From a virus (taxonomy: Duplodnaviria; Caudoviricetes): a stretch of DNA of 59,762 nt. The notes under the pieces were generated by a model. The model ran no database searches and was not told the origin of the DNA. It saw only the letters and a program-made list of their open reading frames with translations. This document shows positions 11,865-59,093 of this stretch, piece after piece (the first letter of the stretch is position 1; the number at the start of each line of letters is the position of its first letter). A program made the translations under genes and the position numbers. Location: positions 1-59,762 of IMG/VR virus record IMGVR_UViG_3300037549_000080; one strand, given 5' to 3'.

Positions 11865-11868
11865 AACC

Positions 11869-12432
11869 TTAGAAGCGGGCGCCGACGCCAACCAACACAA
11901 TGCCGCCGGAGTTGAAAGAGCCATGTTCTTCAAACGGCAGACCCCAGCCGACGTAACTGAACGTGTTCGGTGTCATAACCTTCACGGCTTTGAGGTCACC
12001 TTCCACAATCCAACTTGAATGTTGCACGTTGCCGACATAATTATTGAAGTCAGCGCCGGCAAGGATGTTGGCTTCAATCTTGAAGTCGCCTTTTTGAATA
12101 AGGTTGTAGCCGCCGCCCAACATAATCTTGCCGAACGCGGAACCGACACCTTCAAACTCACCAACGAACTGGGCATTCCAGTTGCCGAAGGTTTTTTCAA
12201 CGGTCAGCCGGTCAGCCGAGGATTTGCCGGTGATTTGCGCCAAGCCGGTTTCGACGGAAAGCGTCGAGTTGGTCCATGAGTAGGTTGGATCATAGTTGAT
12301 GGACGTGCTCCAAGAATACGCCTGCCCAAAGAAATTTACGAGCGGGTTGGCGTTGGTAGCTGTCAGGGTCTGCGCCTGCGCCGTCAGCGACAGCGTGGCG
12401 ATGGTTAGGATTGCTGCGATGTATTTTTTCAT
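11869..12432 (-). CDS. Signal-peptide protein, probable small outer-membrane beta-barrel
   Basis: MKKYIAAILTIATLSLTAQA signal; alternating amphipathic strands; terminal VGVGARF. Confidence 0.65.
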   Translation of the reverse strand: MKKYIAAILTIATLSLTAQAQTLTATNANPLVNFFGQAYSWSTSINYDPTYSWTNSTLSVETGLAQITGKSSADRLTVEKTFGNWNAQFVGEFEGVGSAFGKIMLGGGYNLIQKGDFKIEANILAGADFNNYVGNVQHSSWIVEGDLKAVKVMTPNTFSYVGWGLPFEEHGSFNSGGIVLVGVGARF

Positions 12433-37769: not shown

Positions 37770-38167
37770 TTGCTTTTGGCTTTGGCATTCGCATTCAGCG
37801 CCCGGTGACGTTCAATTATCTTCCGCGCCATCACCACCGCAATCTCGAGCGCGGCCGCCTCGCCCACCATGGTGTCCAGCGCGGCCCGGTTGATGGTCAG
37901 CTTTACTTCGAACACCGTGCTGGTGGCCTTGGTCTTTTCTTTCGCCAGCGCACAGATGCTTTCTGTGAGCAGCTGCCGTTGCTGCGCCAGTCCGCGGTTC
38001 ACCGCGTCCAGCTGCTCCTGCGCCACCGCCCGCGATTGTGCCGGGGTCAGGAAAACTTGCTGCTGCCATTTGGTCAGGCGGGCCATGATGCGTTTTATAG
38101 TTCCGGGCGGTTTCGGTGTCGAATCTTTTTTGCTCATTGTTATTCGTTGGTTCGTTGTTACGGTCAC
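37766..38167 (-). CDS. Hypothetical protein
   Basis: Helical ORF downstream of TerL. Confidence 0.6.
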   Translation of the reverse strand: MTVTTNQRITMSKKDSTPKPPGTIKRIMARLTKWQQQVFLTPAQSRAVAQEQLDAVNRGLAQQRQLLTESICALAKEKTKATSTVFEVKLTINRAALDTMVGEAAALEIAVVMARKIIERHRALNANAKAKSK

Positions 38168-39636
38168 AATCCTAAGTCAGACGGGCTCAGCCTGTCAACA
38201 GATGAAAATGGCGAGGCGGTCACCTGCCCGGCCCGCAGCTGGCTCGCACTGGTGAAGCCGGTGCTGGCCACCGTCAGCACGTTGATGCTACCGCTCAGCG
38301 TGTCCACGATGTCATCATGCGCGTACTCGTCATCATCGTCGCTGAAGTTCTCAAGCTCGGTGAAAAACTCGTCATTCCATTTTCCTTCCACGACGAATAT
38401 CTTGCCGCCTTCCGCCTGTGACATAGCCGGCTTGGCTCGCTCAAATTTGTTTTTCGTCGGCTTGTTCGTGCGCACCGGGTACCCGGCGAGCGCTGTGATA
38501 TACGCATCCACTTCAAACTCGCCGGCTGAGCCAGGGTCACCTTCCAGCACCTGCTCCACCCGCGTGCCGTCCTGTGACGCGGTGTTGAGGATAAGCTTCT
38601 TGACGCCCAGCGGCCGCTCGCGCACCGATTGCATGTCCATCACATAAAAGTTTCCGTCCGGGCAGCGGCGCACCTTGAGGCCGCGTGTCCAGTCGGGGTC
38701 GGGGTTCTCCGGGCTGGGCACCGTGGCCGCCCGGTCCCAGTAGCGCAGCGTCCGGCCTTTCATCGGCACCATGCTGAATGGCACCACCGTGAACCAGCCC
38801 CGCTTGAAGCACATGCCGGCCGCAGCGCGAATCTTCCAGTTGCCGCCCAGCAGCCGTTCCCGGTCAACCTGCGGCAGCGCCATCATGCTGGCGAGGTATG
38901 CCGGGTCGCGTTCCATCCCGATTTTGTTGTCCGTGATTTTGGCCGGGATGAACGTAACGCTCTTGGGTCGCTGGTCGCTGCCGTACTGCGCCCGCAACTC
39001 ATTCGGGGTATCTGCCCACACCAGCTTATTGTTCACCCGGATAAACCACCGCAGCACGCCGCTCCGCTCCGGGATTGCGTACCCGCTGTCCGGGTCAATC
39101 CACCAGTCAATGAACCGGCGCACCCAGCTGTCCGGGTCCGGGTTGCACGTGGCTCGGATGTAACCGCTGATGCCGGTGGCGGAACGGTTGCGGGACATCA
39201 TGTAGAAAAACATGCGCTCAGAAAAATGCGTCAATTCATCCCAGCAAATCAGCGGCACCTGACTGCCTTGCCAGTTCAGAACATCCTTGTCGTACATCAT
39301 GTGCGCGAAGCGAATCGTCGCACCGCTCGGGAAGCGCCAGCTGGAATTGTGTTCGCTGCCCCGGCCGCCGGCCAGCGGGTACAGTTCGAGTGAGCTGTCC
39401 CACAAGCCGCCCTCATTGTGGATGTCAACGTACGTCTTGCGGAATATCACCGCGCTGAAGTTCGGTATCTGGATGTGCCGCAGCGGCTCCATCAGCAGCG
39501 CAAAGGTCTTGCCGCCGAACGCAGCGCCACCATAAATCAGGATGTCGGCCGGGCAGCTGAGCGCACCCGTCTGCGGCCCCGGCTGGGCGGCTATCTTCAC
39601 CTGCTGCTCTAGGGCTGGTTGTGTGGCTGTGTCCAT
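38164..39636 (-). CDS. terL: Terminase large subunit
   Basis: YGGAAFGGKT, ICWDELTHF, RATCNPD, RYWDRAAT, HDDIVDTLSG. Confidence 0.95.
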   Translation of the reverse strand: MDTATQPALEQQVKIAAQPGPQTGALSCPADILIYGGAAFGGKTFALLMEPLRHIQIPNFSAVIFRKTYVDIHNEGGLWDSSLELYPLAGGRGSEHNSSWRFPSGATIRFAHMMYDKDVLNWQGSQVPLICWDELTHFSERMFFYMMSRNRSATGISGYIRATCNPDPDSWVRRFIDWWIDPDSGYAIPERSGVLRWFIRVNNKLVWADTPNELRAQYGSDQRPKSVTFIPAKITDNKIGMERDPAYLASMMALPQVDRERLLGGNWKIRAAAGMCFKRGWFTVVPFSMVPMKGRTLRYWDRAATVPSPENPDPDWTRGLKVRRCPDGNFYVMDMQSVRERPLGVKKLILNTASQDGTRVEQVLEGDPGSAGEFEVDAYITALAGYPVRTNKPTKNKFERAKPAMSQAEGGKIFVVEGKWNDEFFTELENFSDDDDEYAHDDIVDTLSGSINVLTVASTGFTSASQLRAGQVTASPFSSVDRLSPSDLGL

Positions 39637-39674
39637 TTGCGATACAAATTGCGTATAAGCCTATTTCCAGCGTT

Positions 39675-40421
39675 TTATGCCTCTTTTGGCGTGCTGGGCG
39701 CTTCCGGGGCCGGCAAAGCGGCCTCCGGGGCTGCCTCGGGGCTTGCCGGGGCGGTTTTGGGGCTGCCGGCCACCCGGATGGCACCCGGTTGCATGGGGCG
39801 GCCGTTGTCGGGCAGCATTATCACCACCTGTGCCGGCTGGCTGCCGTTGGTGTCCACCGTGGTCTGCACCCGGTCAGTCTCGACGCCCGTGGCCAGCCGC
39901 CGCAGCTTGCTCACCTGTGCTATCAAACCTCCTGCAGTTCCAAAATCAAACTTGACCGGCTCCACGATGGTCACGTTTCGAATCACCGTCTTGCCGTCCT
40001 CACTGAATTGTTCCTGGGTCTGCGTCTGCCGGATGATGGGCATTTGCAGCATCTGGTTCACCTTGGCCATGAGAGCCTCTGCCATCTGCCATTCACCCTC
40101 CCGCAGCGACTGTTCCCGCTTCGCCCACTCCTTGGCGCTGCTCTGCATCTGGGTGCGGAGCGCGGCCTCAGCCTCGCGGGTCTGCTTCAGGTTCCACGCC
40201 TTAACCCGGTTGACCCAGTGCCAGCGGCCGCACCAGCGATTAACCAGTGACCCGCTCTTAGCCAACCTTTCAGCTACTTTTGGGATTGACCGGACGTCGT
40301 CACCCAGTTCCAGATACACCCTGAAGGCCGCATAGGCCACGCTAGTCTCCTTCTCCTGCTGCTCGTACAGCGGCAGGGTCAGGTCGGTCATGTCACCGTG
40401 CGCATAGCGTTTGACCTTCAC
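39675..40421 (-). CDS. terS: Terminase small subunit
   Basis: ETSVAYAAFRVYLELG..RS...VA...RW...W.W..R..AW HTH, directly upstream of TerL. Confidence 0.7.
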   Translation of the reverse strand: MKVKRYAHGDMTDLTLPLYEQQEKETSVAYAAFRVYLELGDDVRSIPKVAERLAKSGSLVNRWCGRWHWVNRVKAWNLKQTREAEAALRTQMQSSAKEWAKREQSLREGEWQMAEALMAKVNQMLQMPIIRQTQTQEQFSEDGKTVIRNVTIVEPVKFDFGTAGGLIAQVSKLRRLATGVETDRVQTTVDTNGSQPAQVVIMLPDNGRPMQPGAIRVAGSPKTAPASPEAAPEAALPAPEAPSTPKEA

Positions 40422-40951: not shown

Positions 40952-40986
40952 CTGCGCCCGTTGGCCTCTGGTGTCAACGGGCGCAG
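40952..40986. terminator. Hairpin
   Basis: CTGCGCCCGTTG...CAACGGGCGCAG. Confidence 0.55.
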
Positions 40987-41000
40987 CATCGGTTTGTTGC

Positions 41001-41288
41001 CTAGCTCATTTCCTGCTTCACCGGCGGCACCTCTGCGGCATTGGCGGCGGCGGGCGCGTTGGCTTTCGCCGTGGCCGTGGTGGCTTCCACCGCGTCCAGT
41101 GCATCCTGCGCGTGGTAGCCGTCACCGAGGTTGACGAAGTGCTGGGTCACGCCGCCCGGCACCACTGTGGCCACCTGACCATTGCAGCTGGTGCAGTTCG
41201 GGTTGATGTCGTGCAGGGTGCCGACTATGCCGTTGGGATAAACCACCGGGTCATTGTTCTTGGCCTCGCGGCCGTTCTTGTAGTGCAT
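41001..41288 (-). CDS. Conserved phage hypothetical protein (MHYKNGREAK)
   Basis: Recognisable N-terminus; packed ORF. Confidence 0.65.
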   Translation of the reverse strand: MHYKNGREAKNNDPVVYPNGIVGTLHDINPNCTSCNGQVATVVPGGVTQHFVNLGDGYHAQDALDAVEATTATAKANAPAAANAAEVPPVKQEMS

Positions 41289-41289
41289 G

Positions 41290-41955
41290 CTATTTGCCTT
41301 TCTTTTTTGCTGGTTTCTTTTGCTTCACCGGGACGGGCTCGGCTACCTCTGGTTCCGGCGGCTTGGCCACCGGCACGTAGAAGCTTCTCCGGGCCACTTC
41401 GTCACGGTCAACTTGGAACACGTTACCGCAGCCCGGACAGCTCATGTCCACGAGGTTGCGGGTGGCGCTGCCTATCTGGGCGACGCCGGCCTGCATCTGC
41501 TGTCCCAGTGCGGCAATCTTTTCGTTGGTCGGCACCGGGGCCGGCGTGCTGACCTTGTTCAGAAATTCGGCAATGTTGAAGTCAGGCATCATGGCCTGCA
41601 CTTCGGCGGGCGTCTGCCACTCACGGATCTCCGCCATGAGCTTGTCCGTGTCCCATGTGGCCGCCTCGCTGCTCTTGTTGTCAATGACTCGGTACTCCTT
41701 GGCCTTGGCTTCGTCCATCAGGCTGATGACGCAGGGCAATGTGGCCAGCCCCAGCTGCTTCGCGGCCATGTATCGCGTGTGCCCGGCGATGATGGTCTTC
41801 TCCGTGTCGAGGATGATGGGCTGCGTGAAGCCAAACCTTTCGATCGACGCCTTCACCACCTGCACGGCAGCCTCGTTGTTCCGCGGATTGCGCCAGTACG
41901 GTATTATCTCCGTGATAGGCACGTTTATGATTTCAAGCTGCGGCTTTTCGCTCAT
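41290..41955 (-). CDS. ParB/Srx N-terminal domain protein with C-terminal Zn ribbon
   Basis: PYWRNPRNN...SIERFGFTQPII...IIAGHTRYMAAKQLG...DNKSSE; CPGCG. Confidence 0.9.
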   Translation of the reverse strand: MSEKPQLEIINVPITEIIPYWRNPRNNEAAVQVVKASIERFGFTQPIILDTEKTIIAGHTRYMAAKQLGLATLPCVISLMDEAKAKEYRVIDNKSSEAATWDTDKLMAEIREWQTPAEVQAMMPDFNIAEFLNKVSTPAPVPTNEKIAALGQQMQAGVAQIGSATRNLVDMSCPGCGNVFQVDRDEVARRSFYVPVAKPPEPEVAEPVPVKQKKPAKKKGK

Positions 41956-42604
41956 GTGATTTTTGTATTTTGATTTGGTTTTCGGTGACCCAGGACGGGC
42001 TAAACTTTGCATCCTTGAACAGCTTGGCGAAGCCGGTGATGTGCTTCAGCCGCAGCAACTCGTCCGGTTCCAGCCCCAGCTCATTGCATATCTGGTTGTC
42101 GCCCCAGCCCAGCTTGAGCAGTTCGAACACCATGCTGCCCATGCCGGCCACGCTGTGCTTACCTCGGGCCCGGTTGTGCCGGATGGTGCTGGCCATGCGG
42201 TCGCCAATCGGCTTGTCAATGACCACGATGGGCAGCAGCCCGTTGCGGGCGGCTTTGATGTCCGGGAAATTGCGCATCGTCGTGTACCGATGGAAACCAT
42301 CAACGATGATGTACTTGCCCAGCTTCTCGTCCCAGATGGTCACCACCGGCTGCGTGTAGCCGTCATGGCTGATGCTGGTGTGCAGCAGGCGCATTTCATT
42401 TGAGGCCACGCTGTTCGGATTGTAATTGTTGCTTTGCACCATTTCGATGGGCACCCAGCGCACGTGGTCAATGGGGTCTTTCAGATCGGATATGTCATGC
42501 AGGTACTCCCTCAGCATGCCTATAAACATCTGCCGGCGGGCCGGGGTGTCCAAGCCGGCCATCAGCTTGGTGATTATATTTTTTACTTCGGCGGGCAGTT
42601 TCAT
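41933..42604 (-). CDS. ibrB: IbrB/YbdM-like ParB-domain protein
   Basis: NNYNPNSVA..EM.LL..SI..DGYTQPVV, VDGFHR, RMASTIRHNRARGKH. Confidence 0.9.
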   Translation of the reverse strand: MKLPAEVKNIITKLMAGLDTPARRQMFIGMLREYLHDISDLKDPIDHVRWVPIEMVQSNNYNPNSVASNEMRLLHTSISHDGYTQPVVTIWDEKLGKYIIVDGFHRYTTMRNFPDIKAARNGLLPIVVIDKPIGDRMASTIRHNRARGKHSVAGMGSMVFELLKLGWGDNQICNELGLEPDELLRLKHITGFAKLFKDAKFSPSWVTENQIKIQKSHERKAAA

Positions 42605-43725
42605 TTTCGTAACTCTACCTTTCCTTGCTTGAGCTGTAAATGCAAAGCGTTCTCGATTGAGCAGCACCAGTTGGCCAGCTTCACATGCTCATAGTCGTTG
42701 GTCAGGATGCTGTTGATGTGCAGCCGGAACAGTTTGTCACCCGCCTTGTCCAGCCAGATTTCCTCCATCCATTTGAATTTCTTGGCGAAGCCGTCGCGCC
42801 ATTCCGGGTTGGCGATTAAGTTTTCCAGCAGGTAATCCCGGTACTCCCGCCAGTCTTTGAACATGTGGGGCAGGTCATGGATGAAATAATCGTCTTTGTT
42901 CATCTTGCCGGCCATGTCTATGCCTTGGATGCGCTGCGTCAGGCGCTGATACGTTTCCGGCTCTATCTCCTGCAAATGGAACAGGCTCTTGACGGCGGTT
43001 TCATGATGCACGTTGCTGACCCGCATCTTGCTCGGCGGCACGCCGTACCGATAATAATGGTCATAGAGTTCGTTGTACGGCCAGCCGTTGTCATTGATGG
43101 CCTTCCACACGTCGCCCAGCGCCCAGTCATAAATCGGGTACATGGTGAAATGCAGCTGCGCCTTTTTGTTGAAGCATTTCCCCCAGGTCGCGCCCTTGTA
43201 CGTTTCATGCATCGTCAGCCCTTGGAACCGGCTCGGGCTTTCCTCGCACCGCACGCCGGCCAGATAACAGGTCTTCAGCCCGGCAAAGTCTTTGGTCAGG
43301 ATGGCTTCGAACAGTTCAAAGAACCGGTTCGTGCCGTAGGTGTTCTCCTTGATGGCGTTCGGCTCTTTGGGCCGCAGCCAGACATCTTCCTTGCCCGGCT
43401 CCCAGCAGTACAGCTGCGTGTCAATCTGGCTGGTCGCGTTGACCATCTGAATCGGTATCTGGTACCACAGCGGTTCAACCTCCGGGTTTTCCATGACGAG
43501 GCGCACGTAGTTCACCGTGGCCTGCCACTCGGCCTCTTGGTCCACGAACATCACCTTCAGCGGCAGCCGCCCTTTCTCACGGGCCACCAGCAGCGCAAGG
43601 TTCAAGATGATGGTGCTGTCTTTGCCGCCGCTGAAGCCGACCAGCACATTCGGGAATTCATCGAAGAGCCAGCGCATCCGTTTGAGCGCGGCCTCCCAGA
43701 CGTTATCTTTGATGTAGAACTTCAC
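42601..43725 (-). CDS. ibrA: IbrA/YbdN-like PAPS-reductase-fold (PP-loop) protein
   Basis: NVWEAALKRMRWLF, FSGGKDS, DQEAEW, GVRCEES..R, YPIYDW...DVW, MRVS; GTGA start. Confidence 0.9.
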   Translation of the reverse strand: MKFYIKDNVWEAALKRMRWLFDEFPNVLVGFSGGKDSTIILNLALLVAREKGRLPLKVMFVDQEAEWQATVNYVRLVMENPEVEPLWYQIPIQMVNATSQIDTQLYCWEPGKEDVWLRPKEPNAIKENTYGTNRFFELFEAILTKDFAGLKTCYLAGVRCEESPSRFQGLTMHETYKGATWGKCFNKKAQLHFTMYPIYDWALGDVWKAINDNGWPYNELYDHYYRYGVPPSKMRVSNVHHETAVKSLFHLQEIEPETYQRLTQRIQGIDMAGKMNKDDYFIHDLPHMFKDWREYRDYLLENLIANPEWRDGFAKKFKWMEEIWLDKAGDKLFRLHINSILTNDYEHVKLANWCCSIENALHLQLKQGKVELRK

Positions 43726-44888
43726 AGCGCTGGTTTTATATCGCCTTTGAACGTGAAGCCCAGCGCATTCAGCCGGTTGAAGAATTCCATTTCTGGGATG
43801 ATGCCTTCCGGGCAATACACACCCCGGTCAGTGATGAAATTTTCCAGCAGCATTTCTGTGATGATGCAGGCGGGAAAGGCGGTGTCCACGTTGCACCCGT
43901 ATTCTTCCCAGCCGGGCAGCGGCGGCACGATGCATTCCATGTGGCCCACCACCGGCAGCTTGTTGACCTCGCCCCGCACCGTCACCCACAGGTTTTCAGA
44001 TTCCTTGTACCCGGCCGGCGTTGGTATGCGCTTGCTCATGGCCGTCAGGAAGTCGCACGGCTGCACCTTGGTTGGCCCGGCATCCGTCACCACGATCACG
44101 GGCTGGTCGTGCTGGAAACCCATTTTAATCAGAGAGTCAATCACGGCCTTGCTGTGCGCCGGGAACCCGGCGAAGAATTTCACGTTCTTCAAACCCTTGT
44201 CTTTGAAATAGTGGTGGAATGAATAAACCTCCGAGTGCGGCACCAGATACACGACCTGCTCACCCAGCAGTTCAAATTCCCGGCATTTAGATTCGCTCAG
44301 CGGCGGCACCGTCACCAGCTCATTGTTCTCCATCACCAGCGCCGGCAGGCTCAGCTCCAACGTGACCACGTACAGGAAGAACGGCGGCACAAAGTCTTTC
44401 ATGTTGCTGTCCCATGCGAAACCAGCCTCAGCGCTCTCCACGGAATGCATCTGCCCGGCCATGTGCTTCATCATCACGCTGCCGATGCCCGGCACGCTGC
44501 CGCAACCCATGATAGCTGTCAGCCCGGCCGCCTTCACTTCCTGATGCCGGATTAGCCGGCGGGCGGTGCCCGGTATGTCCGAACCCAGGTCCACGTAGTG
44601 AGTGTTGAAATCAATGCACGCCTGAAGCACTCCGTCATTGTAAAAGTCGCTGGCACAGTTCAGCACGATGCGCGGCTGGAACCGTTCAAGGATGTCCCGC
44701 AGCATGTACGTGTGGCGGTGGTCGCAGAACTGGAACGGTATCTTGCCGCCGGCATGGTCTATTTCCTTCTGCACGTTGTCCCGGTAGATGTCGGCCACCA
44801 CGATGCTGTGGCCGCGCTGTGACAGGAACCGGGTGGCGATGATGCCTTGCTGCCCGTCTGCACCGAGGATGAGGATGTCAGTTTTCAT
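43722..44888 (-). CDS. Saccharopine dehydrogenase-family NAD(P)H oxidoreductase
   Basis: Rossmann ILGADGQQG, HYVDLG, GCGSVPGI, HSEV, GVYCPE. Confidence 0.85.
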   Translation of the reverse strand: MKTDILILGADGQQGIIATRFLSQRGHSIVVADIYRDNVQKEIDHAGGKIPFQFCDHRHTYMLRDILERFQPRIVLNCASDFYNDGVLQACIDFNTHYVDLGSDIPGTARRLIRHQEVKAAGLTAIMGCGSVPGIGSVMMKHMAGQMHSVESAEAGFAWDSNMKDFVPPFFLYVVTLELSLPALVMENNELVTVPPLSESKCREFELLGEQVVYLVPHSEVYSFHHYFKDKGLKNVKFFAGFPAHSKAVIDSLIKMGFQHDQPVIVVTDAGPTKVQPCDFLTAMSKRIPTPAGYKESENLWVTVRGEVNKLPVVGHMECIVPPLPGWEEYGCNVDTAFPACIITEMLLENFITDRGVYCPEGIIPEMEFFNRLNALGFTFKGDIKPAL

Positions 44889-45433
44889 TGGTTGGATTTA
44901 TCAATCACTTTTTTTAGTTCCGCGTACCGGGCACCGTTCATTTCTCCGCCTATGAACCTTGCCCCGCACTTGATGATTATTTCTGCTGTCACGCCCAGCC
45001 CGGCAAACGGGTCAAACACCAGCCCCGGCTTCAGGGCCGCAATGGCCGCCCGGATGCAGCCTTCTTCATCCAGCCCCAGCGTGGGCGTCAGATAATCGGT
45101 GTTGAAGGACAGCACCACCATCGGCTTGCCGTTGCATTGCAACGCCAGCGCGTGACCGGTGTACCGGTGGCCGCAATACTTTCCTATCTCCACCACCTTG
45201 TCCCAGCCACGGGCCGAGAACTCCACCAGCATCGGCTTGTCGCGGTGCGCTGAAGCAAATAGCTGGTTGAGCGCGTCCTTCATTGTTTCTTTTGACGCCC
45301 GGCCGGTTTTTACCATGGCCGACTTTTGGAAAAGCTTCATGATGCCTTCGTTCCAAGGCGGGTCGGTGTACATCAGGTCATAGGCCGGGAACGATGGCCA
45401 GTCTCCCACGGAACGGTTATAGGCTTGGTTCAT
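44885..45433 (-). CDS. Minimal beta-class amino-methyltransferase (N6A/N4C type)
   Basis: YTDPPW precedes VFDPFAGLG; GGEMN; only 182 aa. Confidence 0.8.
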   Translation of the reverse strand: MNQAYNRSVGDWPSFPAYDLMYTDPPWNEGIMKLFQKSAMVKTGRASKETMKDALNQLFASAHRDKPMLVEFSARGWDKVVEIGKYCGHRYTGHALALQCNGKPMVVLSFNTDYLTPTLGLDEEGCIRAAIAALKPGLVFDPFAGLGVTAEIIIKCGARFIGGEMNGARYAELKKVIDKSNQ

Positions 45434-45618
45434 GGCAGGATAAATTCACCGTCAAGTTTCTTGGAGTCTTCGGGGAACGGGTTGGAGAATTCCTTGTGCC
45501 AGTCAATGCCCATTACCTCAGCGGCCGGGTCGTACGTGGCGCTGTTGCTAAGGTTCCGGCCGCACTTGGCCGCCATGGTCGTGCAGTCACGGGTCTTGTG
45601 GTTCAGGACGTAAATCAT
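45430..45618 (-). CDS. Hypothetical protein
   Basis: ATGA overlaps on both sides. Confidence 0.65.
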   Translation of the reverse strand: MIYVLNHKTRDCTTMAAKCGRNLSNSATYDPAAEVMGIDWHKEFSNPFPEDSKKLDGEFILP

Positions 45619-45956
45619 AGTCTAGCCCGGTTGAACACCGTGGTTTCATCCGGCGGCCATCCCATCGTCCAATACTGATAGCCGCCATGCTCCAGATAAA
45701 TGTACGCCGTCCGGAAGAACGGTTTAATCACCCCGGCGCTGCGCACGTGGTTGACCATGCGCTCCCATGCGCGTTCATCCGGTGTCTCACTGCGGCGAAG
45801 GTACTGGTGCGGCAGCTGGGCTTTGCCGGCGTGCATCGGCCGGGCCGTGTGCCAGCCGCCGGCGATAACGAAGGCAGCGAACTCTTCCCAAGTAACTGTG
45901 TCGGCGGTGACTTTCTGCTTCTGCTCCGTGACGCTGGGTGTTTTCTCGTAGGCCAT
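45615..45956 (-). CDS. Conserved small domain protein (PHQY...Y.YWTMG.P..ET...NR)
   Basis: Recognisable motif; first gene of the coupled operon. Confidence 0.7.
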   Translation of the reverse strand: MAYEKTPSVTEQKQKVTADTVTWEEFAAFVIAGGWHTARPMHAGKAQLPHQYLRRSETPDERAWERMVNHVRSAGVIKPFFRTAYIYLEHGGYQYWTMGWPPDETTVFNRARL

Positions 45957-45986
45957 TAGTTTTAGTTGGTCGTTGTTTCTTGACCA

Positions 45987-46015
45987 AGTAAACACTCCGT
46001 GGCCGGCGCCGTCAA
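45987..46015 (-). promoter_or_regulatory. Putative sigma70 promoter of the modification/packaging operon
   Basis: TTGACG-N17-TTTACT followed by an AC-rich leader. Confidence 0.55.
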
Positions 46016-46075
46016 CAGAAATTGACATCCTCCCCGGCCTGAAGGCGCTGGGCAACCCATAAGGAATGGATAAAT

Positions 46076-46136
46076 GGCCGCACCGGGAACAACTCCGGTG
46101 CGGCCGCGTGACGGTAACAAGACCAACACCGTCACG
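46076..46136 (-). terminator. Two adjacent hairpins after the ligase gene
   Basis: GGCCGCACCGG/CCGGTGCGGCC and CGTGACGGT/ACCGTCACG. Confidence 0.6.
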
Positions 46137-47217
46137 AAACTTCTGCCTTGTACTTCAGCTGCCGGGTGATGCATTCCATGGCGTCAACGTCATCGCGTTT
46201 GAACGTCTCGCCCGTCATGCACGGGCTGGGTTGATACAGCACGCCTGTCGCCTTCAGGGCGTACAGGTACTTGATTTCCACGACGTCGCCAACCTTCAGC
46301 GTTTCAATCAGGCCACGCTTTAGCACCGTCACGTTGCCGCAGGACACCCACGCATTGCCGTTGAATAGCTCGCACTCAATGCTCAACGCACCGCCGGGCC
46401 GCAGCGTGCGCACCCGCGCTGAGAGGCTTTTCCAGAACTTGCACTTGAACTGCGTATCGGTGTAGCCCACTTGGAACGCGGCATCACGGCGCTTGAACAC
46501 GATACCCTCTTTGCCGCCGTGCTTCAGGTCGTTAAACATCTTGCGCTTTTCTTCCTTGGTGAACGCCGTGGGCACCACCCGCACCGGCGTGTCGGTCCAC
46601 GGGAACAGGTTGATTGCTTTGGCCAGCCGGTGACTGTACGGTTCAGAGGTTATGTCCTGCCCGTCCAGCCCGGCCCAGCTCGTCAGGTTGTGGACATGGT
46701 AAACGTCACCAATGTGTTCCGCGCTGGCAATGAAGTCCCGTTTGGCCATGATGGCTTGGTCATGCACCGGGCCGGGCGTGGGAACTATCTGCCCCTTTTT
46801 GTTCGCGCTGGTCACCACCATATTTTTCAGCCGCAGCGTCTTGTTCCGGCCGTCCAGCTTTTCCTGTGCGCAATAGGCGTCATCGTTGATGTACTGCTCC
46901 GCATCTTCCTCGCTGATGTCCGTCAGCAGCTGGGGCAACATTTCGGCGTCCACTTCCTTGGCTGTTTCACCCACCGGGGCGGCGGCCGGTTGCTCGTCCA
47001 TCTTGTAACCCTTAGCCACCTTTTCTTTCACTAGGCGGTTGAAGATGTCCTGTGCCTGTGCCCGCGTGACTTCCAGCGGCGTCTTGGTGCCGCAGGTCAG
47101 GGCGCTGCCCCGGCGGCCGTATTGGAAGTTCACCACGTAGCCGTGACCTTTCGGCTCAAGCTGCACGTGGTACTCTTTGTCACTGGTGCCCGACTGGTAT
47201 CTCAATGTCATTTTCAT
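46132..47217 (-). CDS. WGR-domain ATP-dependent ligase
   Basis: SDKEY...YGRRG (WGR); QEKLDG motif I; EGIVFKR; KCKF; C-terminal OB fold. Confidence 0.88.
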   Translation of the reverse strand: MKMTLRYQSGTSDKEYHVQLEPKGHGYVVNFQYGRRGSALTCGTKTPLEVTRAQAQDIFNRLVKEKVAKGYKMDEQPAAAPVGETAKEVDAEMLPQLLTDISEEDAEQYINDDAYCAQEKLDGRNKTLRLKNMVVTSANKKGQIVPTPGPVHDQAIMAKRDFIASAEHIGDVYHVHNLTSWAGLDGQDITSEPYSHRLAKAINLFPWTDTPVRVVPTAFTKEEKRKMFNDLKHGGKEGIVFKRRDAAFQVGYTDTQFKCKFWKSLSARVRTLRPGGALSIECELFNGNAWVSCGNVTVLKRGLIETLKVGDVVEIKYLYALKATGVLYQPSPCMTGETFKRDDVDAMECITRQLKYKAEVS

Positions 47218-48100: not shown

Positions 48101-50200
48101 TCATTTTGCATTGCCATAAATCTCCGGGAACAGGTCACCCACCTGCCGGCGGTACTTCCTCGCCAGCCGCACCGCCTCCGCCCCTTGCCTCGGCGTCAGC
48201 TGGTTTTGATAGGCTAGGTGGTGGCCATACTTTACATCAAACTTGCCGAACCCTTCAGCGTTAATCGTGCTGGCTCGGTCCGCGTCCATGCCGGCCAGCT
48301 GCTGCATCGCCCGGTGCGCCCGGTCAATCTGGTCACGGGTCAGGCGCAGCGCCAGCTTGTCCGTTTCCTCACGCCGGGCCGCTTTCTTTGCCTCGGCCGG
48401 GCTGGGCGTAAACGTCACGCTCGTCGCCCCGTTGCTTTCCCGGCGCGTCACCGTGGCCGCCGGCGTCACGTTGGTCAGCGCCAGCCGGGCCTCGGCCTCA
48501 AGTTTGAAATCAACCTCGCCGCGCAGCCGCAGCACTTCGTCGGGCAGCCCGTCATTGAGAATATCAATCCGGCCAATCTTTTCGTTCACGCCCTTGCACA
48601 CCGCCTCTTCAATCGTGCCGGCCGCGAAAAATATCCGCTGGATGCTCTTGGCACCCTTGGCTCGCCACACCCGGCCCAGCGCCTGCTTCATGTCCTGCCC
48701 GCTCCACGTTGGAAAGATGATGCTCGCCCGCATGCGGCTCGTCGGGCTGCCGTGCAAACTGACACCCACGCCGCCCGCCTGTATGATGGCCAGTATCACA
48801 TGCTGCTGGTCGGCTTGGAAGGCGTCAATGTTGCCCTGCCGCTCCGCCTCAGTCTGCCCGCCTTTGATTAGGCACTTGGTGCCCAGCTTTTCGGACAGGG
48901 CGGCCAGTGTCTCGGTGAAGTTCACAAACACTGCCACGCTCATGCCTTCTTCTATCAAATCTTCAACCATCGCCACCACCGCCGGCACCTTGATTATCTC
49001 CGTCCGCTGCCGGGCGCGTAGCATCTCTGTCAGTATGCAGGCTTGCTTCTTGGCATCTTCCATTTCGCTGGCTGCAATCCGGGCAATCTCTTCGGCCATT
49101 TCTTCGTTCACCCGGTTGATGGCGGCTGCATCGCATTCGTAGCACTCTGCGGTTATTTGAGTTTCCGGGAACTGGTCACCTAGGTCGGCTATCCGTATGC
49201 GGGTACCGTGCAGCGGGAAAATGCTCTTATGAATCTTGGCCAGCGCCTCGCGGCCGCCGGTGAATTCCATCCCCCAGTTGCCCCGGCTGACCCCGTTCCG
49301 CAGCATCCACGGGTAAAACTCATGCTCGCTTTTAATCAGCCCGGCCACCCGCGCCGAAAACTTCATCTGCATCGGGTTGTCAGCCGCCGTCGCGCTCAGG
49401 CCCAGCACCTTGTATCCTTGACGCAGCGCAGCCAGCCCCAGCTGGGCGTTCAACGTCTTGGCGTTTTTCATGCGATGGCACTCGTCAAAAATAATCACTG
49501 TGTCGGCCGGCAGGTGCCACAGGAACTCCTGATACTTTTCCACCGACTTATCCCGCTTATTCCGGGTCTTGTTTTCCAGTGAGCAAACCGGCAGCGTGCC
49601 CCGGCGAAGCATTTCATAGTTCTCGCATCCGGCCAGCTGCACCCCGTAGTGGGCCGCCGCCCGCTTCCAGCTGGTCCGCACCGCCAGCGGGCACACAATG
49701 AACGCCTTCAGCCCCAGCACGGCACAGGCTGCGAGATTCACGTACGTCTTGCCGGTGCCCGTGTCGCTGGCGTCCAGCGCCGAACCGTAGTCCAGCAGCG
49801 CCCGCGCCTGCCGGCGAACACTGGGCACCTGATACGGTATGCACAGCGGTTCAACGGCCGCCAGATTGGCGTGGTACTCCACCGGCAAATCCGCCAGCGC
49901 CCCGGATAGCGCCCGTTCCATTTCAGCGCGCTCCGCATCTTGCTTGGCCTTGCGCTCGGCATCTTTGGCCGCCTGTGCGGCCGGGTCGGTGGATTGCCAC
50001 CAGCACACTTCCCAGACGCCTTGGTACTGGCCGCAGGATATTCCGGCCGCCCGCAGCTGTTCCTTGGCCTCACGCCACACGCCCCAGAAGGCTTGGCTCG
50101 GCGGTGCCTTGCGCAGCATCTTGTCACCCGCCCGGGTCGGCACCAGCTTGGCCTCGCCCCAAGGCAGCAAGGTCTTGATGTCAATGGTGGTCGCTTGCAT
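48101..50200 (-). CDS. SNF2-like SF2 helicase
   Basis: DTGTGKT, IFDECH, LSAT, GGVGVSLH, QALGRVWR. Confidence 0.9.
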   Translation of the reverse strand: MQATTIDIKTLLPWGEAKLVPTRAGDKMLRKAPPSQAFWGVWREAKEQLRAAGISCGQYQGVWEVCWWQSTDPAAQAAKDAERKAKQDAERAEMERALSGALADLPVEYHANLAAVEPLCIPYQVPSVRRQARALLDYGSALDASDTGTGKTYVNLAACAVLGLKAFIVCPLAVRTSWKRAAAHYGVQLAGCENYEMLRRGTLPVCSLENKTRNKRDKSVEKYQEFLWHLPADTVIIFDECHRMKNAKTLNAQLGLAALRQGYKVLGLSATAADNPMQMKFSARVAGLIKSEHEFYPWMLRNGVSRGNWGMEFTGGREALAKIHKSIFPLHGTRIRIADLGDQFPETQITAECYECDAAAINRVNEEMAEEIARIAASEMEDAKKQACILTEMLRARQRTEIIKVPAVVAMVEDLIEEGMSVAVFVNFTETLAALSEKLGTKCLIKGGQTEAERQGNIDAFQADQQHVILAIIQAGGVGVSLHGSPTSRMRASIIFPTWSGQDMKQALGRVWRAKGAKSIQRIFFAAGTIEEAVCKGVNEKIGRIDILNDGLPDEVLRLRGEVDFKLEAEARLALTNVTPAATVTRRESNGATSVTFTPSPAEAKKAARREETDKLALRLTRDQIDRAHRAMQQLAGMDADRASTINAEGFGKFDVKYGHHLAYQNQLTPRQGAEAVRLARKYRRQVGDLFPEIYGNAK

Positions 50201-51414: not shown

Positions 51415-51879
51415 TCAGTAGGCAAAATATCCCAGTTCCCGCAGGCTGCAATATCCTTTTCCCTTTTGCGCATCGCCCACAATCACGTGGTCGCACAATT
51501 CGATTTTCAGCAGCTGCCCGCACCGGATTAAGTCGCGGGTAACTTTGATGTCAGCCTCGCTCGGTGAGCTTTCGCCGCTGGGGTGGTTATGCATCAGGAT
51601 GATGCTCGCAGCGCTCATGCCAATGGCCGGCTTGAACACTTCCCGCGGATGCACCAGTATCGTGTCCAGCGTGCCGGTGCTGATGACCGTGTGGCCGGTC
51701 AGGCGCTTGCGGCTGTTCAGGCATATCAACACCAAGGTTTCGACGTCTTGGTTGAAGCGCGGGTCAGTGGCCACGTACTGCCGCCAGTAGTTCACCACCA
51801 TATCCGGCGTGTCACAGATTGGGTCCGCCACCGGGCACTCCCGCAGCGTCATCACTTTGAATTCGATTGGTTGTTTCAT
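51415..51879 (-). CDS. radC: RadC-like JAB domain protein
   Basis: GTLDTILVHPREVFKPA, HNHPSG...PSEADI..T, CDHVIVG. Confidence 0.93.
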   Translation of the reverse strand: MKQPIEFKVMTLRECPVADPICDTPDMVVNYWRQYVATDPRFNQDVETLVLICLNSRKRLTGHTVISTGTLDTILVHPREVFKPAIGMSAASIILMHNHPSGESSPSEADIKVTRDLIRCGQLLKIELCDHVIVGDAQKGKGYCSLRELGYFAY

Positions 51880-52719: not shown

Positions 52720-54459
52720 TTACTGGCCGCTGCCCAGCAGCAGCCGGGCGTCACCGGTGCCCAGCTGCACGTTGGTCTTGAAGTATTCGGCGGCTTTCGG
52801 GTCATCCAGTTCCTCCGCCGCTTCCTTGCCCGTGCGCAGCCAGCCCCGGAGCCGGCCGTGTTCCACGTTCAACGCCAGCATGAAATCCTTGTTCAACCGC
52901 AGATGCACGTTGCCATTCAGGAAGGCCCGGCAGTCGAACAGCAGCTTGCCGGCACCCAGCGGCGTCATATAGAAGTTCTCCGTCTTGCCCGGTGTCCAGC
53001 CGGTGCGGCCGGAATAGATCAGTCGCGGTTCGCTGGTGTTGTTCTGGAAACCAAGGTTGCGAGCCAGTGTCCCTAGGTCTTGCAGGAAGCTGGCCGATGA
53101 CTCATTCAGCTCTGAATCCCGCCACGTTGACCGCATGCCGCCGCCCAGCCGGTGCGACACAATCCGGTAATCCAGCGCGTAGTGACTGTTCGGGTCGGCT
53201 TCGTCCCGGCCGCGCCACCGGTTTTCCACCCAGACCCGGTGATTGCTCTTGTACAGCGTCACGTTGGCTTTCTCCACCATCTGCTCGTAGGTTTCCAGCA
53301 GCTGCGAATCAATGTACCGGTTCGCGTTCTTGATTACCCACAGCACCACTTCAAGGATGTTGTCCACGGTGAAGTCCACCTGCACATGCTTTTGAAGCGT
53401 TTCCAGCAGCTGCTTCCGGCTCTTGTTGGTCAGGCGCTCGGTGATGGCGTTCAGGTGGTCGAACAGCTCTTTCCAGTAATCGTTGCGCAGCCCGGCCAGA
53501 CGCAGCTTGAGGCATTGCATGATTTTGTCCGGGAAGATTTCAAACTCACGCAGGAGATCCACATCCAGGTCGGACACCAGCCGGTAGTTCTTATTCACGT
53601 GTTCCATTTCGGCGTTGTACAGCTGCACCAGCGCCTCGGGATAGTTCGGGCCCACCACCAGCGAATGGAACGGCCGCACCCGGCCGCCCTTGGTCTTTTC
53701 CTCACTGAAACCGTGGTCGGGTTTCTCTGGCTCGGCGGCCTTGAACCGGTTGATTAGGTCGGCAAACTGCTCCTTGAAGAATCGGCCAAACGCATCGTCT
53801 TTGTCTCGGTCGTACCGGTCAACCCGGTACCGGATGCTGAGCAAGTCCACCTTGGCGCGGGCCTTGCGGTCTTCCGCATCTTCAAAGTCAAAGCTGCCCA
53901 CCTTGACTGCTTCAACCTCGCGGAATTGCAGCGCGTCAAGGATTTCTATGCTGCCTTCCCAGCGCCGGGGCAGCAGCAGATACACCACCCGGCAGGATGC
54001 CTCCCGGATAATCTTTTCGGCCCATGGGACAAACTGGCTGTAAGGCGGGTTGCAATAGATGATGTCCACCGGCTTCGAGAGCAGGCTTTGTTCTTCAAAC
54101 TTGGTGCCCACCACCAAGACTTCATTCGGCAGTTCGGCGCAAAGGATATGCGACTTTTCAATGGCATGCAAATTGTTCACTCCGCATTTCTCTTTGACGG
54201 CCATTAACACCTTGCCGTTGCCGGCCCCGATGTCCAAGATGCTGCTCTTGCCTTCGCGGTCATCGTCCCGGTGGCCATGCTCGTTCACGTACACCAGCCC
54301 GATGTCCCGGCACAGCGCCATGATGATTTCATTGGTGGTCGGGTACCACTCATGGTCTTCACCCGCCTGCTTCAGTTCCTCGACCAGCTTGCGCGGCGTG
54401 GTGAAGCTGCCGGATGCGGCCGCCGGTTCAAAGGTCAGGCCGGGCTGGGTGGCGGTCAT
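52720..54459 (-). CDS. Class I SAM-dependent DNA adenine methyltransferase (DUF4942-type)
   Basis: EWYPT, ILDIGAGNG, CNPPYS, C-terminal AFLNGNVHLRL. Confidence 0.85.
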   Translation of the reverse strand: MTATQPGLTFEPAAASGSFTTPRKLVEELKQAGEDHEWYPTTNEIIMALCRDIGLVYVNEHGHRDDDREGKSSILDIGAGNGKVLMAVKEKCGVNNLHAIEKSHILCAELPNEVLVVGTKFEEQSLLSKPVDIIYCNPPYSQFVPWAEKIIREASCRVVYLLLPRRWEGSIEILDALQFREVEAVKVGSFDFEDAEDRKARAKVDLLSIRYRVDRYDRDKDDAFGRFFKEQFADLINRFKAAEPEKPDHGFSEEKTKGGRVRPFHSLVVGPNYPEALVQLYNAEMEHVNKNYRLVSDLDVDLLREFEIFPDKIMQCLKLRLAGLRNDYWKELFDHLNAITERLTNKSRKQLLETLQKHVQVDFTVDNILEVVLWVIKNANRYIDSQLLETYEQMVEKANVTLYKSNHRVWVENRWRGRDEADPNSHYALDYRIVSHRLGGGMRSTWRDSELNESSASFLQDLGTLARNLGFQNNTSEPRLIYSGRTGWTPGKTENFYMTPLGAGKLLFDCRAFLNGNVHLRLNKDFMLALNVEHGRLRGWLRTGKEAAEELDDPKAAEYFKTNVQLGTGDARLLLGSGQ

Positions 54460-58298: not shown

Positions 58299-59093
58299 TT
58301 AGTGCAGATTCAGCCATACAAAGGTGGTGTCGCTTTTTGTCAGGCACCGCACAGCGCGGCCTTTGATTGCGTTATTTAAGGCATGTAAACAATGTGGTGG
58401 CTCTTTCGGGTGAATATAATCGTGCAGGCCGATTGCGATGAGGCCGATGCGGTCAATCCATTGGTGGGAATTTTCAAGGACTTGCCGCTCTGCACCTTCA
58501 ATGTCCATTTTCAAAATATCAATGGTTTCAAGTCTGTATTCTTTAAGCAGGCTGCCGATTGAAACTGTTTTAGTATCTCCGGTTTTTTGTGGCTCAAAGG
58601 CGAATCCAGCATGACAGCCATCCTCTTTTATTCCCATCCTACCCCCTGAATACCACCACAGCGCAGCCTTGACCGGTTTTATGTTTTGGTAGGGTGCGCT
58701 ATTCCTCAAAAGCATTTCATAATTTGACTGCTCCGGTTCAATGGCGATTATCAGCGCATCTGGATACCGGTTCGCGTAATAAACCGATGTGCAGCCGATG
58801 TTAGCTCCGGCGTCAACGATGACCTTCGGCTCGCTGGCCAGATCGCACTTGTATTCCTCGTCAAGCAGGATTTCCTGAACCACCCACATATCGGTCGTTC
58901 CGGCGCGAACACGGACTGGATGTTTAATTCCGCGAACCTTGATGAGGCTGATTTGGCTCTGGGTGATGTTTAGCGCGTGCTTTACTTTCTTAGCCACTAT
59001 GCCTATCGGGATGTGGAGTAAGAATCTAGCAATGCCGCTTAGGCCGATTTGGCGGTAGTAGTGCGGTAATCTGCGTAGTGTTTTGGTAGTCAT
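58299..59093 (-). CDS. FkbM-family methyltransferase
   Basis: IVDAGANIG, IAIEP, IDILKMDIEGAE; visibly more AT-rich than its neighbours. Confidence 0.9.
   Translation of the reverse strand: MTTKTLRRLPHYYRQIGLSGIARFLLHIPIGIVAKKVKHALNITQSQISLIKVRGIKHPVRVRAGTTDMWVVQEILLDEEYKCDLASEPKVIVDAGANIGCTSVYYANRYPDALIIAIEPEQSNYEMLLRNSAPYQNIKPVKAALWWYSGGRMGIKEDGCHAGFAFEPQKTGDTKTVSIGSLLKEYRLETIDILKMDIEGAERQVLENSHQWIDRIGLIAIGLHDYIHPKEPPHCLHALNNAIKGRAVRCLTKSDTTFVWLNLH

Follow-up and report, generated by a model that had tools for sequence, protein, structure and literature searches.

Carboxyspermidine dehydrogenase (CASDH) forms an imine between an aldehyde and a primary amine and transfers a hydride to it. 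In the B. fragilis enzyme, the active site comprises the catalytic His228, the relay residue Glu230, and Glu188, and the 2'-phosphate of NADPH is held by Ser34-Arg35-Thr36 (sections of PMC10413350); passages of PMC13683441 propose for the acidic residue at position 229 a role in coordinating the distal amine of putrescine or the guanidinium of agmatine. In viruses, homospermidine synthases are described from chloroviruses, giant viruses, and phage phiRSL1 (excerpts of PMC9992855). IbrA and IbrB, a PP-loop enzyme and its ParB-fold partner, have the E. coli K-12 paralogues YbdN and YbdM; ybdNM is treated as a CitR-regulated operon in the available part of PMC9068703, and in the partial texts at hand we came across no functional assignment for the IbrA/IbrB pair. 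Phage ParB-methylase fusions of unknown role appear in the accessible portion of a 2025 bioRxiv survey of ParB-CTPase folds. Here we describe a phage locus in which a CASDH-like enzyme of the saccharopine dehydrogenase family (43722-44888, minus strand; 388 aa) lies between a small methyltransferase and genes for IbrA, IbrB, and ParB. The locus comes from IMG/VR record IMGVR_UViG_3300037549_000080 (Caudoviricetes), a complete viral genome of 59,762 bp with direct terminal repeats, the whole of which we call the window. The phage cassette itself is known but uncharacterised; the version bearing the dehydrogenase is new, and, as had been supposed when the locus was first noticed from its sequence (the original prediction), we found no description of this combination in the literature.

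A phage relative of carboxyspermidine dehydrogenase

The original prediction placed the enzyme in a family that performs reductive amination, and this assignment holds: the protein matches Pfam Sacchrp_dh_NADP (5.3e-11) and Sacchrp_dh_C (1.5e-13), and its nearest solved structures are carboxyspermidine dehydrogenases. A profile search of the PDB returned 8deb (E 3.9e-47). The predicted model, built from a 72-sequence alignment, has a mean predicted local distance difference test (pLDDT) score of 95.8 and keeps the three-domain CASDH-type architecture; Foldseek aligns it to 8deb_A, the B. fragilis CASDH, with a template-modelling (TM) score of 0.87 (E 3.7e-32) and to 8h52, the H. pylori carboxyspermidine dehydrogenase, with a TM score of 0.85. 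Lower ranks are occupied by saccharopine reductases (about 0.75) and by L-lysine dehydrogenase 3abi (0.73). Homospermidine synthases come well behind CASDH, with TM scores of 0.63-0.72 (E about 1e-13 to 4e-10), and are absent from the PDB profile matches at E<=1e-3; among predicted viral structures, giant-virus homospermidine synthases are the only whole-fold matches (TM 0.68-0.70). The score against the NCBIfam equivalog model for carboxynorspermidine synthase (NF043000) is 46.5 bits, or 45.5 in the genome search, compared to a cut-off of 800.

We mapped the active site by HMMER alignment to CASDH, taking residue roles from the available parts of PMC10413350 and PMC13683441. His228, Glu230, and Glu188 of the B. 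fragilis enzyme align to H218, E220, and E178 of the phage enzyme, all of which are invariant in the 72 family sequences. Conservation of the catalytic His together with its relay Glu and the deep Glu, along with the shared fold, leads us to infer CASDH-type chemistry, with formation of an imine from an aldehyde and a primary amine and hydride transfer. Other positions differ. The equivalent of position 229 is Ser219, and Ser, Pro, or Ala occurs there across the family, such that the acidic residue is lost; the proton-relay Ser144 of CASDH is replaced by Gly; and the substrate-recognition loop is shorter than that of CASDH. The Ser34-Arg35-Thr36 equivalents are Asp33-Ile34-Tyr35, with Asp33 nearly invariant in the family. 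An acidic residue at this position of the Rossmann fold is typical of NAD-preferring enzymes. The phage enzyme probably uses NAD(H) rather than NADPH, and its amine substrate would be something other than putrescine or agmatine; judged by its sequence, it is a relative, not an equivalent, of the known CASDHs.

The family to which it belongs is large, with 332 matches at E<=1e-3 among the candidates scored. Neither the protein nor a 12-kb DNA query has a match in deposited phages, and a single-protein search of viral contigs found nothing, such that an alignment-based search was needed. We fetched 163 loci of relatives (3 viral, the best 80 of 83 from genomes, and the best 80 of 181 from metagenomes), 134 of which are unique after removal of duplicates and of two without a complete open reading frame (ORF). 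Almost all the genome loci come from assemblies of Patescibacteria, the candidate phyla radiation (CPR), and of DPANN type, at about 40% identity to the phage enzyme.

A FastTree phylogeny of 146 rows, comprising the window, the unique loci, those of the proteins P0001-P0011 that no locus already represented, and three paralogue outgroups, separates phage from cellular enzymes. The phage-type clade holds 11 rows with support of 100 (the window, four loci designated L001-L004, and P0001, P0002, P0005, P0006, P0008, and P0009), and it is sister to 130 cellular rows with support of 99; these supports are local, and one long row, L074, fell on the outgroup side. Two signatures mark the phage clade: a C-D-H-R motif and a basic T-x-R-R-L-x-R motif at the position of the CASDH substrate-recognition loop, where the cellular clade has T-x-x-Q-L-x-M-D. 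Averaged over 10 phage-clade sequences, residues 100-118 carry a net charge of +0.9, vs -1.8 over 62 cellular ones. The clade has been maintained over 47-58% identity, with its gene overlaps conserved.

Within three genes of the cellular relatives (134 loci), we found SET-domain genes in 22, mostly in the branches nearest the phage clade, and GARS-like ATP-grasp genes in 19; a second family paralogue occurs in 17, and FAD oxidoreductases and a ketopantoate-reductase-like gene, so named from its sequence, in 9 each. Sampled loci also contain homospermidine-synthase-like genes, a pyridoxal-phosphate-dependent ornithine/arginine decarboxylase, a pyruvoyl arginine decarboxylase, deoxyhypusine synthase, an M29 peptidase, S-adenosylmethionine (SAM) synthetase, and S-adenosylhomocysteine hydrolase.

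Two cellular arrangements are worth recording in their own right. In Patescibacteria, a GARS-like ATP-grasp gene, a CASDH-like dehydrogenase, and a SET gene form a recurrent operon (L005, L010, L014, L016, L017, L018, and others), near which lie genes for an M29 peptidase, an FMN reductase, arginine/ornithine decarboxylases, and SAM-cycle enzymes; it may represent an undescribed polyamine-conjugate pathway. The second paralogue, a divergent protein of about 392 aa, is encoded immediately after the dehydrogenase, in the same orientation, in 14 of its 17 loci; loci of DPANN type with this paralogue or with an upstream ketopantoate-reductase-like gene include L030, L034, L041, L047, L048, and L149, among others.

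The operon and its recurring cassette

The seven ORFs described as an operon in the original prediction lie on the minus strand, which carries 59 of the 76 kept ORFs of the genome, where it had placed them (45956-41290). They are, in order, an adaptor-like gene, gA (45615-45956; 113 aa, with no Pfam or PHROG family); gB (45430-45618; 62 aa, likewise without a family match in Pfam or PHROG); the mini-methyltransferase (44885-45433; 182 aa); the dehydrogenase; IbrA (42601-43725; 374 aa), which starts with GTG at 43725; IbrB (41933-42604; 223 aa); and a second ParB-like protein (41290-41955; 221 aa) similar to the ParB domain found in phage fusions of ParB to a methylase. The junctions of gA with gB, gB with the mini-methylase, the mini-methylase with the dehydrogenase, and IbrA with IbrB are all ATGA; that of the dehydrogenase with IbrA is GTGA; IbrB and ParB overlap by 23 nt. 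The claim that the genes are joined by ATGA, GTGA, or short overlaps is therefore borne out, as are the domain identities, by Pfam and PHROG. The count of seven, however, falls one short: since a 95-aa gene (41001-41288, minus strand) begins 1 nt past the ParB stop, the coupled unit has eight genes, running from 45956 to 41001. This eighth gene has no family above threshold and no relatives in the fetched dehydrogenase-family loci. The position just upstream of the terminase is roughly right, although the 95-aa gene and a 169-aa gene intervene between ParB and the small subunit. The terminase genes occupy 38164-40421 on the minus strand (TerS, 39675-40421; TerL, 38164-39636) and match phrog_6299 (4.4e-21), phrog_979 (4e-159), and Terminase_6N/6C.

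The coupling of the dehydrogenase recurs in other phage loci. L001, an 11.4-kb viral contig, is syntenic with the window from the ligase gene through gA, the DPPW methylase, the dehydrogenase, IbrA, IbrB, and ParB to TerS and TerL, with 56% identity in the dehydrogenase and 85% in IbrA. In L004 and the near-identical L084, a fusion of a gA-type domain to a SET domain is followed by the dehydrogenase, IbrA, IbrB, and TerL; here the dehydrogenase is 53% and IbrA 39-40% identical to those of the window. L002 and L003, 58-kb viral records that are 77% and 100% complete, have the order SET, dehydrogenase, ParB, and then portal-region genes, with a ParB 25-27% identical to that of the window. The dehydrogenase is thus flanked by cassette genes in the window, L001, and L004. 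We also noted that the DPPW methylase of L001 (4500-5110) is split over two frames, one with the D-P-P-W part and the other with the SAM-motif part, through a frameshift or an assembly error.

The junctions themselves are conserved. Dehydrogenase and IbrA overlap as GTGA in the window, L001, and L004, and dehydrogenase and ParB as ATGA in L002 and L003; on the upstream side, the overlap of methyltransferase and dehydrogenase could be read in the window (ATGA) and for the SET genes of L004 (ATGA) and L003 (GTGA). Because 4-nt overlaps recur in four related contigs, the coupling of the dehydrogenase is conserved and not due to chance. Nor is the gene the one-off insertion that the original prediction had set against its own proposal; that objection falls away because the dehydrogenase lies between a methyltransferase and IbrA in both L001 and L004/L084, with the same GTGA junction.

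Directly upstream of the dehydrogenase we found an N-methyltransferase in all five phage loci with known context, and it is of four types: a DPPW enzyme (window and L001), a SET domain fused to the adaptor (L004), and one SET subtype each in L002 and L003. The dehydrogenases of the last two loci are 89% identical, but their SET proteins, of different subtypes, are only 31% identical over 124 residues; judged by these sequences, the difference looks like an in-place gene swap. (Of the two SET proteins, encoded at 3118-3744 in L002 and 7519-7995 in L003, one carries a Cys-rich post-SET tail, and the other belongs to the CPR type.) The partner methyltransferase has been exchanged at least three times, which is a strong sign of a two-enzyme pathway. 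Comparison of the loci shows, at the level of gene order, that the dehydrogenase is constantly coupled on its upstream side with an N-methyltransferase and on its downstream side with IbrA or ParB.

The mini-methylase of the window has a Pfam match to N6_N4_Mtase (PF01555) of 27.9 bits, just over the 26.7 cut-off, confined to residues 136-170. Its D-P-P-W motif (residues 24-27) precedes its SAM motif, F-D-P-F-A-G-L-G (residues 140-147), and this order, (D/N)PP(Y/F/W) and then F-x-G-x-G, is that of N6/N4 DNA amino-methyltransferases, with motif IV followed by motif I; in a family alignment of 31 members, D24-P25-P26-W27 and F143-x-G145-x-G147 are invariant or nearly so. PDB profile matches are weak (E 1e-05 to 8e-03) and cover only the SAM-binding end of DNA adenine and cytosine methylases, and at 182 aa the protein is smaller than the 232-366 aa of the solved relatives matched. 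It has no match in deposited phages, and a word-indexed homologue search retrieved only the protein itself; an exhaustive HMMER search yielded 209 cluster representatives at E<=1e-3, mostly of 170-215 aa.

When we scanned viral contigs with the mini-methylase alignment we obtained 76 loci, of which the 44 analysed (L174-L217) cover most of the query and 39 are unique. IbrA is present in 41 of the 44 (36 of the 39 unique loci), IbrB in 37 (32 unique), and ParB in 36 (31 unique). A gA-type domain, detected by hidden Markov model, occurs in 31 of the 39 unique loci, and a protein of about 200 aa matching phrog_854, annotated 'glucosyltransferase', in 36; gB relatives were found by tblastn in 4 of the 44. 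Neither the dehydrogenase nor a SET gene occurs in any (0/44; 0/39 unique). The mini-methylase is thus not the special partner of the dehydrogenase that it had been taken for, and we likewise dropped the idea that the DPPW methylase replaces SET as the dehydrogenase's own partner, since it is a regular cassette gene.

The usual order in these loci is gA-type gene, glucosyltransferase-like gene, mini-methylase, up to two further genes, IbrA, IbrB, and ParB. The further genes encode HNH proteins (9 loci), GNAT proteins (two clusters, in 5 and 4 loci), class I methyltransferases, or a second DPPW protein, and the HNH and GNAT genes occupy the position between methylase and IbrA. One locus is unusual: in L181 (4151-6720), a 267-aa PP-loop protein (S-G-G-K-T-S) lies upstream, and a second DPP-type mini-methylase and a GP88-family protein replace the usual neighbours.

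We also surveyed the cassette from the side of IbrA, relatives of which occur in at least 575 viral stretches, taking the 80 closest. A gA-type domain is found in 65 of these, including 51 of the 54 whose upstream sequence extends for 2 kb or more; the mini-methylase is found in 35, the phrog_854 glucosyltransferase-like gene in 37, and SET in none. Taken together, comparison of the sequences shows a core cassette of the presumed adaptor gA, a DPPW amino-methyltransferase of about 180 aa, IbrA, IbrB, and a further ParB. The cargo around the methylase is shown by the same comparison to vary, and the dehydrogenase, which occupies the variable position, is a rare cargo carried by this phage.

The gA-type domain is about 85 aa long, with P-H-x-Y, Y-W-T-M-G, and I-N-R-A blocks, and elsewhere it forms fusions with class I methyltransferases (L179, 3604-4413; L216, 4060-4941), with a glucosyltransferase-like domain (L184, 4066-4965), and with SET (L004, 2338-3354, and L084); the gene in L001 lies at 3994-4500. 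The predicted model of gA (pLDDT 88.4) matched nothing in the PDB by Foldseek below E of 0.2; in a wider structure comparison Z reached 3.9 at most, winged-helix-like entries being scattered among the matches, and an Atlas look-up returned sub-threshold matches only (FGE-sulfatase, 0.85), with all structure TM scores under 0.5.

IbrA combines PAPS_reduct (PF01507, 3.7e-15, 56.8 bits) with DUF3440 (PF11922, 2.7e-10, 40.7 bits), a PP-loop ATP pyrophosphatase of the PAPS-reductase fold, and matches phrog_2302 (1.2e-87). Its PP-loop motif S-G-G-K-D-S is invariant in alignments of 7 and 22 sequences. IbrB, of the ParB/Srx fold, matches phrog_2159 (5.5e-71) and scores 23.7 bits against ParB_N, just under the 26.3 cut-off; ParB matches ParB_N (1.1e-09), phrog_620 (5.8e-43), and phrog_498 (4.7e-34). 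The original prediction linked IbrA to DndC. A cysteine dyad of DndC is mentioned in the available portion of PMC12839542, which treats BrxP and DndC, not IbrA. The two alignments of IbrA contain no invariant or nearly invariant Cys, such that DndC-like sulphur chemistry, and with it iodine cleavage, looks unpromising; the NCBIfam scores are 31.4 bits against 290.4 for DndC (TIGR03183) and 14.7 against 606 for TilS. With the DndC score so far under its cut-off and no conserved Cys, we dropped this chemistry. Pfam and PHROG scans of the phage found no cysteine desulfurase and no DndA, DndD, or DndE partners.

Among deposited phages, 223 records carry an IbrA relative, and ParB and IbrA lie beside the terminase or portal in Flavobacterium phage FCL-2, Streptococcus phage CHPC1148, and Mycobacterium phage Phaedrus. 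In the first two of these, a shorter SNF2 protein directly adjoins ParB/IbrA. The best deposited-phage relative of IbrA, at 40% identity and annotated as an adenylyltransferase, is from Microbacterium phage Leaf (L167, 89687-95340), where it is preceded by an annotated methyltransferase, a GNAT acetyltransferase, and two glycosyltransferases, a cargo-rich version of the cassette; a Pfam scan confirmed the GNAT, found no family for the annotated 'methyltransferase', and left the glycosyltransferases to their annotation.

The original prediction had put the operon under one promoter. A sigma-70 consensus scan found no site upstream of gA; the four sigma-70-like sites in the region, vs 2.4 expected, are all internal, and no minus-strand terminator was flagged. 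A hairpin pair after the upstream ligase-like gene (46076-46135, minus strand), which escaped the simple terminator scan, is a likely transcript boundary ahead of the cassette: its stems are positions 1-28 and 31-60 of 45950-46135(-), and this 186-nt segment folds with a minimum free energy of -80.2 kcal/mol (z -4.37; 0/200 shuffles equally stable). A 12-bp GC-rich hairpin without a U-tract after the 95-aa gene (40952-40986, minus strand; -24.5 kcal/mol, z -3.62, 1/200 shuffles equally stable) likely marks the 3' end of the unit. Since strong hairpins flank the unit on both ends, the eight genes are plausibly a single transcript.

Several other minus-strand genes of this phage were noted. Directly upstream of the cassette, 46132-47217 encodes a protein of 361 aa that has a WGR domain at its N terminus (7.6e-06), weakly matches ATP-dependent DNA ligase (Pfam 0.0071; phrog_114 1e-09), and is 63% identical to its counterpart in L001; two genes upstream of the cassette is a 699-aa SNF2/ResIII-type helicase (48101-50200; phrog_62 4.1e-37). 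Farther away lie genes for a patatin-like phospholipase (11007-11933; 3.5e-19), a RadC-like JAB protein (51415-51879; 1.9e-37), a DUF4942 protein (52720-54459; 1.4e-11), and an FkbM-type methyltransferase (58299-59093; 2.6e-11).

Role of the dehydrogenase

We tentatively propose, with somewhat less than even confidence, that the dehydrogenase is an amine-alkylating tailoring enzyme that feeds a DNA-directed IbrAB system. It would join an aldehyde to a primary amine and reduce the imine to a secondary amine, or catalyse the reverse. Because the two are constantly coupled, the upstream N-methyltransferase and the dehydrogenase would act on the same amine. The gene position and the adaptor::SET fusion in L004 in turn suggest that this amine is the moiety handled by IbrA, IbrB, and ParB, or that it sits on their target. 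That target would most likely be phage DNA before packaging, with the dehydrogenase tailoring an amine-based modification; in favour of DNA are the N6/N4 family of the methylase, the two ParB-fold proteins, the HNH cargo, the adjacency to terminase, and the SNF2 helicases beside IbrA/ParB in cultured phages. The basic loop peculiar to the phage clade also counts in favour of the proposal. The phage genome scans found no DNA polymerase match and no genes for base hydroxymethylation, which means that any mark on the DNA would be made after replication. Hypermodification through 5-hydroxymethyl-pyrimidines was considered and dropped, as the phage scans found no thymidylate-synthase-like gene, kinase, or dioxygenase.

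A number of observations weigh against this proposal. The dehydrogenase occurs in only one of the 80 closest IbrA loci, that one being on the contig of L001, and in none of the 223 deposited phages with IbrA; the neighbourhood survey called for in the original prediction thus finds it beside IbrA again, in L001 and L004/L084, but rarely. No PAPS-reductase domain is found anywhere in the L002 or L003 records, at 77% and 100% completeness, and IbrA is therefore not required for the dehydrogenase. Outside L001-L004/L084, none of the 163 fetched loci contains IbrA, IbrB, or this ParB (tblastn, 1e-3), and gene context is known for only five of the 11 phage-clade proteins. The genome scans of the phage found neither an aspartate-semialdehyde enzyme nor a base-hydroxymethylating one, and a carboxyspermidine decarboxylase is missing from its scanned ORFs. 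The slot may be a hot spot for insertion, as its HNH genes suggest, in which case neighbours need not share a function. The polyamine and methylation genes around the cellular relatives point to free polyamines, not DNA. Finally, the substrates of all characterised relatives are small molecules, handled inside a closed active-site tunnel, according to the sections of PMC10413350 at hand.

Much of this evidence would suit an independent polyamine gene, the main alternative explanation, which we regard as a real but doubtful possibility. The methyltransferase and dehydrogenase would together make or alter a free polyamine-type compound, such as an N-methylated carboxy-polyamine, that might function in translation, in takeover of the host, or in condensing DNA inside the capsid; IbrA, IbrB, and ParB would be unrelated, and the pair would lie there only because the slot tolerates inserted genes and its expression is suitably timed. 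The nearest structures are indeed polyamine biosynthetic enzymes, the cellular relatives lie amid polyamine and SAM-cycle genes (with SET in 22/134 and GARS-like genes in 19/134), and phage-encoded polyamine enzymes are an established class (excerpts of PMC9992855); the rarity of the gene among IbrA loci, its presence in L002 and L003 without IbrA, and the HNH genes in its slot fit as well. Against this explanation, the gene is overlap-coupled to IbrA or ParB in all five phage loci, and its SET partner is fused to the cassette adaptor in L004. Moreover, the phage enzyme lacks the residue with which putrescine or agmatine would be recognised at the distal amine (by the passages of PMC13683441), and the phage proteins scanned lack an ornithine/diaminopimelate/arginine decarboxylase domain, and hence a carboxyspermidine decarboxylase to complete a spermidine-type product, although a host enzyme could substitute.

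A more specific form of the DNA-directed proposal, which we consider unlikely, is that IbrA adenylates phage DNA under the guidance of ParB, an amine displaces AMP, and swappable cargo enzymes docked by the adaptor decorate that amine. The precedent is TilS, in which adenylation is followed by amine attack: lysine displaces AMP in the formation of lysidine in tRNA. IbrA would act on a base carbonyl or a phosphate, and IbrB/ParB clamps would load near the packaging site. The cargo would be a GNAT, a SET or DPPW methylase, a glucosyltransferase-like enzyme, or, here, the CASDH-like enzyme, and the resulting DNA side chain could be N-methylated, extended with a 3-amino-3-carboxypropyl group, or made polyamine-like, via reductive amination. 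If true, this would mean a previously undescribed kind of DNA hypermodification.

The target could instead be protein, although we think this improbable: SET, GNAT, methyltransferases, and the dehydrogenase would modify lysines of a DNA-bound phage or host protein, perhaps the ParB proteins themselves, rather than DNA or free amines. SET domains belong to the known protein-lysine methyltransferases; the GNAT and the lysine-dehydrogenase-like fold, with 3abi as a structural relative (TM 0.73), suit lysine chemistry too, and an adaptor fused to varied enzymes would suit docking onto a protein. But the dehydrogenase model retains the closed three-domain CASDH architecture, the longer proteins searched (680-2000 aa) include no fused or enlarged forms, which is weak evidence, the mini-methylase is of the DNA N6/N4 family, and no candidate substrate protein is conserved with the dehydrogenase.

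An oxidative role seems to us similarly improbable. Here the enzyme would use NAD+ to cleave or demethylate a secondary or N-methylated amine, as an eraser or salvage step paired with the methyltransferase, and the change at the NADPH phosphate site from Ser34-Arg35-Thr36 to Asp33-Ile34-Tyr35, with its nearly invariant Asp33, would be in keeping with this (residue roles from the sections of PMC10413350 available). Cofactor preference does not set direction, however; a writer and an eraser in one overlap-coupled operon would have no obvious use for the phage, and the cellular contexts, with decarboxylases and SAM-cycle genes, look biosynthetic. That the dehydrogenase is a passenger without a role in this phage is very improbable: despite its rarity among IbrA loci and the selfish HNH genes in the same slot, its ORF is intact, its catalytic residues are invariant, its predicted model is very confident (pLDDT 95.8), and the phage-specific clade has been kept over 47-58% identity with conserved overlaps.

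Comparison with known systems

The cassette sits beside the packaging genes in many phages without an assigned function, and its fixed core with exchangeable cargo, most of which consists of enzymes acting on amino groups, narrows the chemistry. The phage-only clade of a polyamine-enzyme family is new, with no match in deposited phage genomes, and the methyltransferase-dehydrogenase pair, itself uncharacterised, is shared by phages with CPR/DPANN cells. An amine that ended up on DNA would make this a new way of hypermodifying DNA, probably for protection against restriction; one that stayed free would point to a viral polyamine pathway that is itself new.

The CASDH-type enzymes, which include carboxyspermidine, carboxynorspermidine, and carboxyaminopropylagmatine dehydrogenases (EC 1.5.1.43; PDB 8DEB, 8H4Z/8H52, 4INA, 4RL6), share with the phage enzyme their fold and the catalytic His/Glu/Glu. 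They differ in that identity is only about 20%, and in the amine-recognition residue, the NADPH site, the loop, and the partner decarboxylase, which the phage lacks. The viral homospermidine synthases of PMC9992855 resemble the phage enzyme as members of the saccharopine dehydrogenase superfamily carried by a virus; the abstract of that paper mentions no carboxyspermidine dehydrogenase, the term 'CASDH' is absent from its main text as available, and its accessible passages place no viral polyamine enzyme beside ParB or IbrA genes.

With respect to IbrA, TilS and DndC/SspD have the PP-loop S-G-G-K-D-S in common with it, a likeness of mechanism only and not of membership. IbrA/IbrB of E. coli, with the K-12 paralogues YbdN/YbdM, match the phage pair in having an enzyme with PAPS_reduct and DUF3440 domains beside a ParB-fold protein. 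The IbrAB pairs of deposited phages (phrog_2302 with phrog_2159) are alike in their adjacency to terminase or portal but lack the dehydrogenase (0/223).

Closest in gene content are the CPR/Patescibacteria operons of SET and CASDH-like genes, a pairing for which we found no paper combining 'SET domain' with 'carboxyspermidine'. Their dehydrogenase is of the same family, at about 40% identity, and phage loci L002-L004 keep SET directly upstream. In contrast, the cellular operons are without IbrA, IbrB, and ParB and include a GARS-like ATP-grasp gene and polyamine genes, whereas the window has the DPPW methyltransferase in the place of SET.

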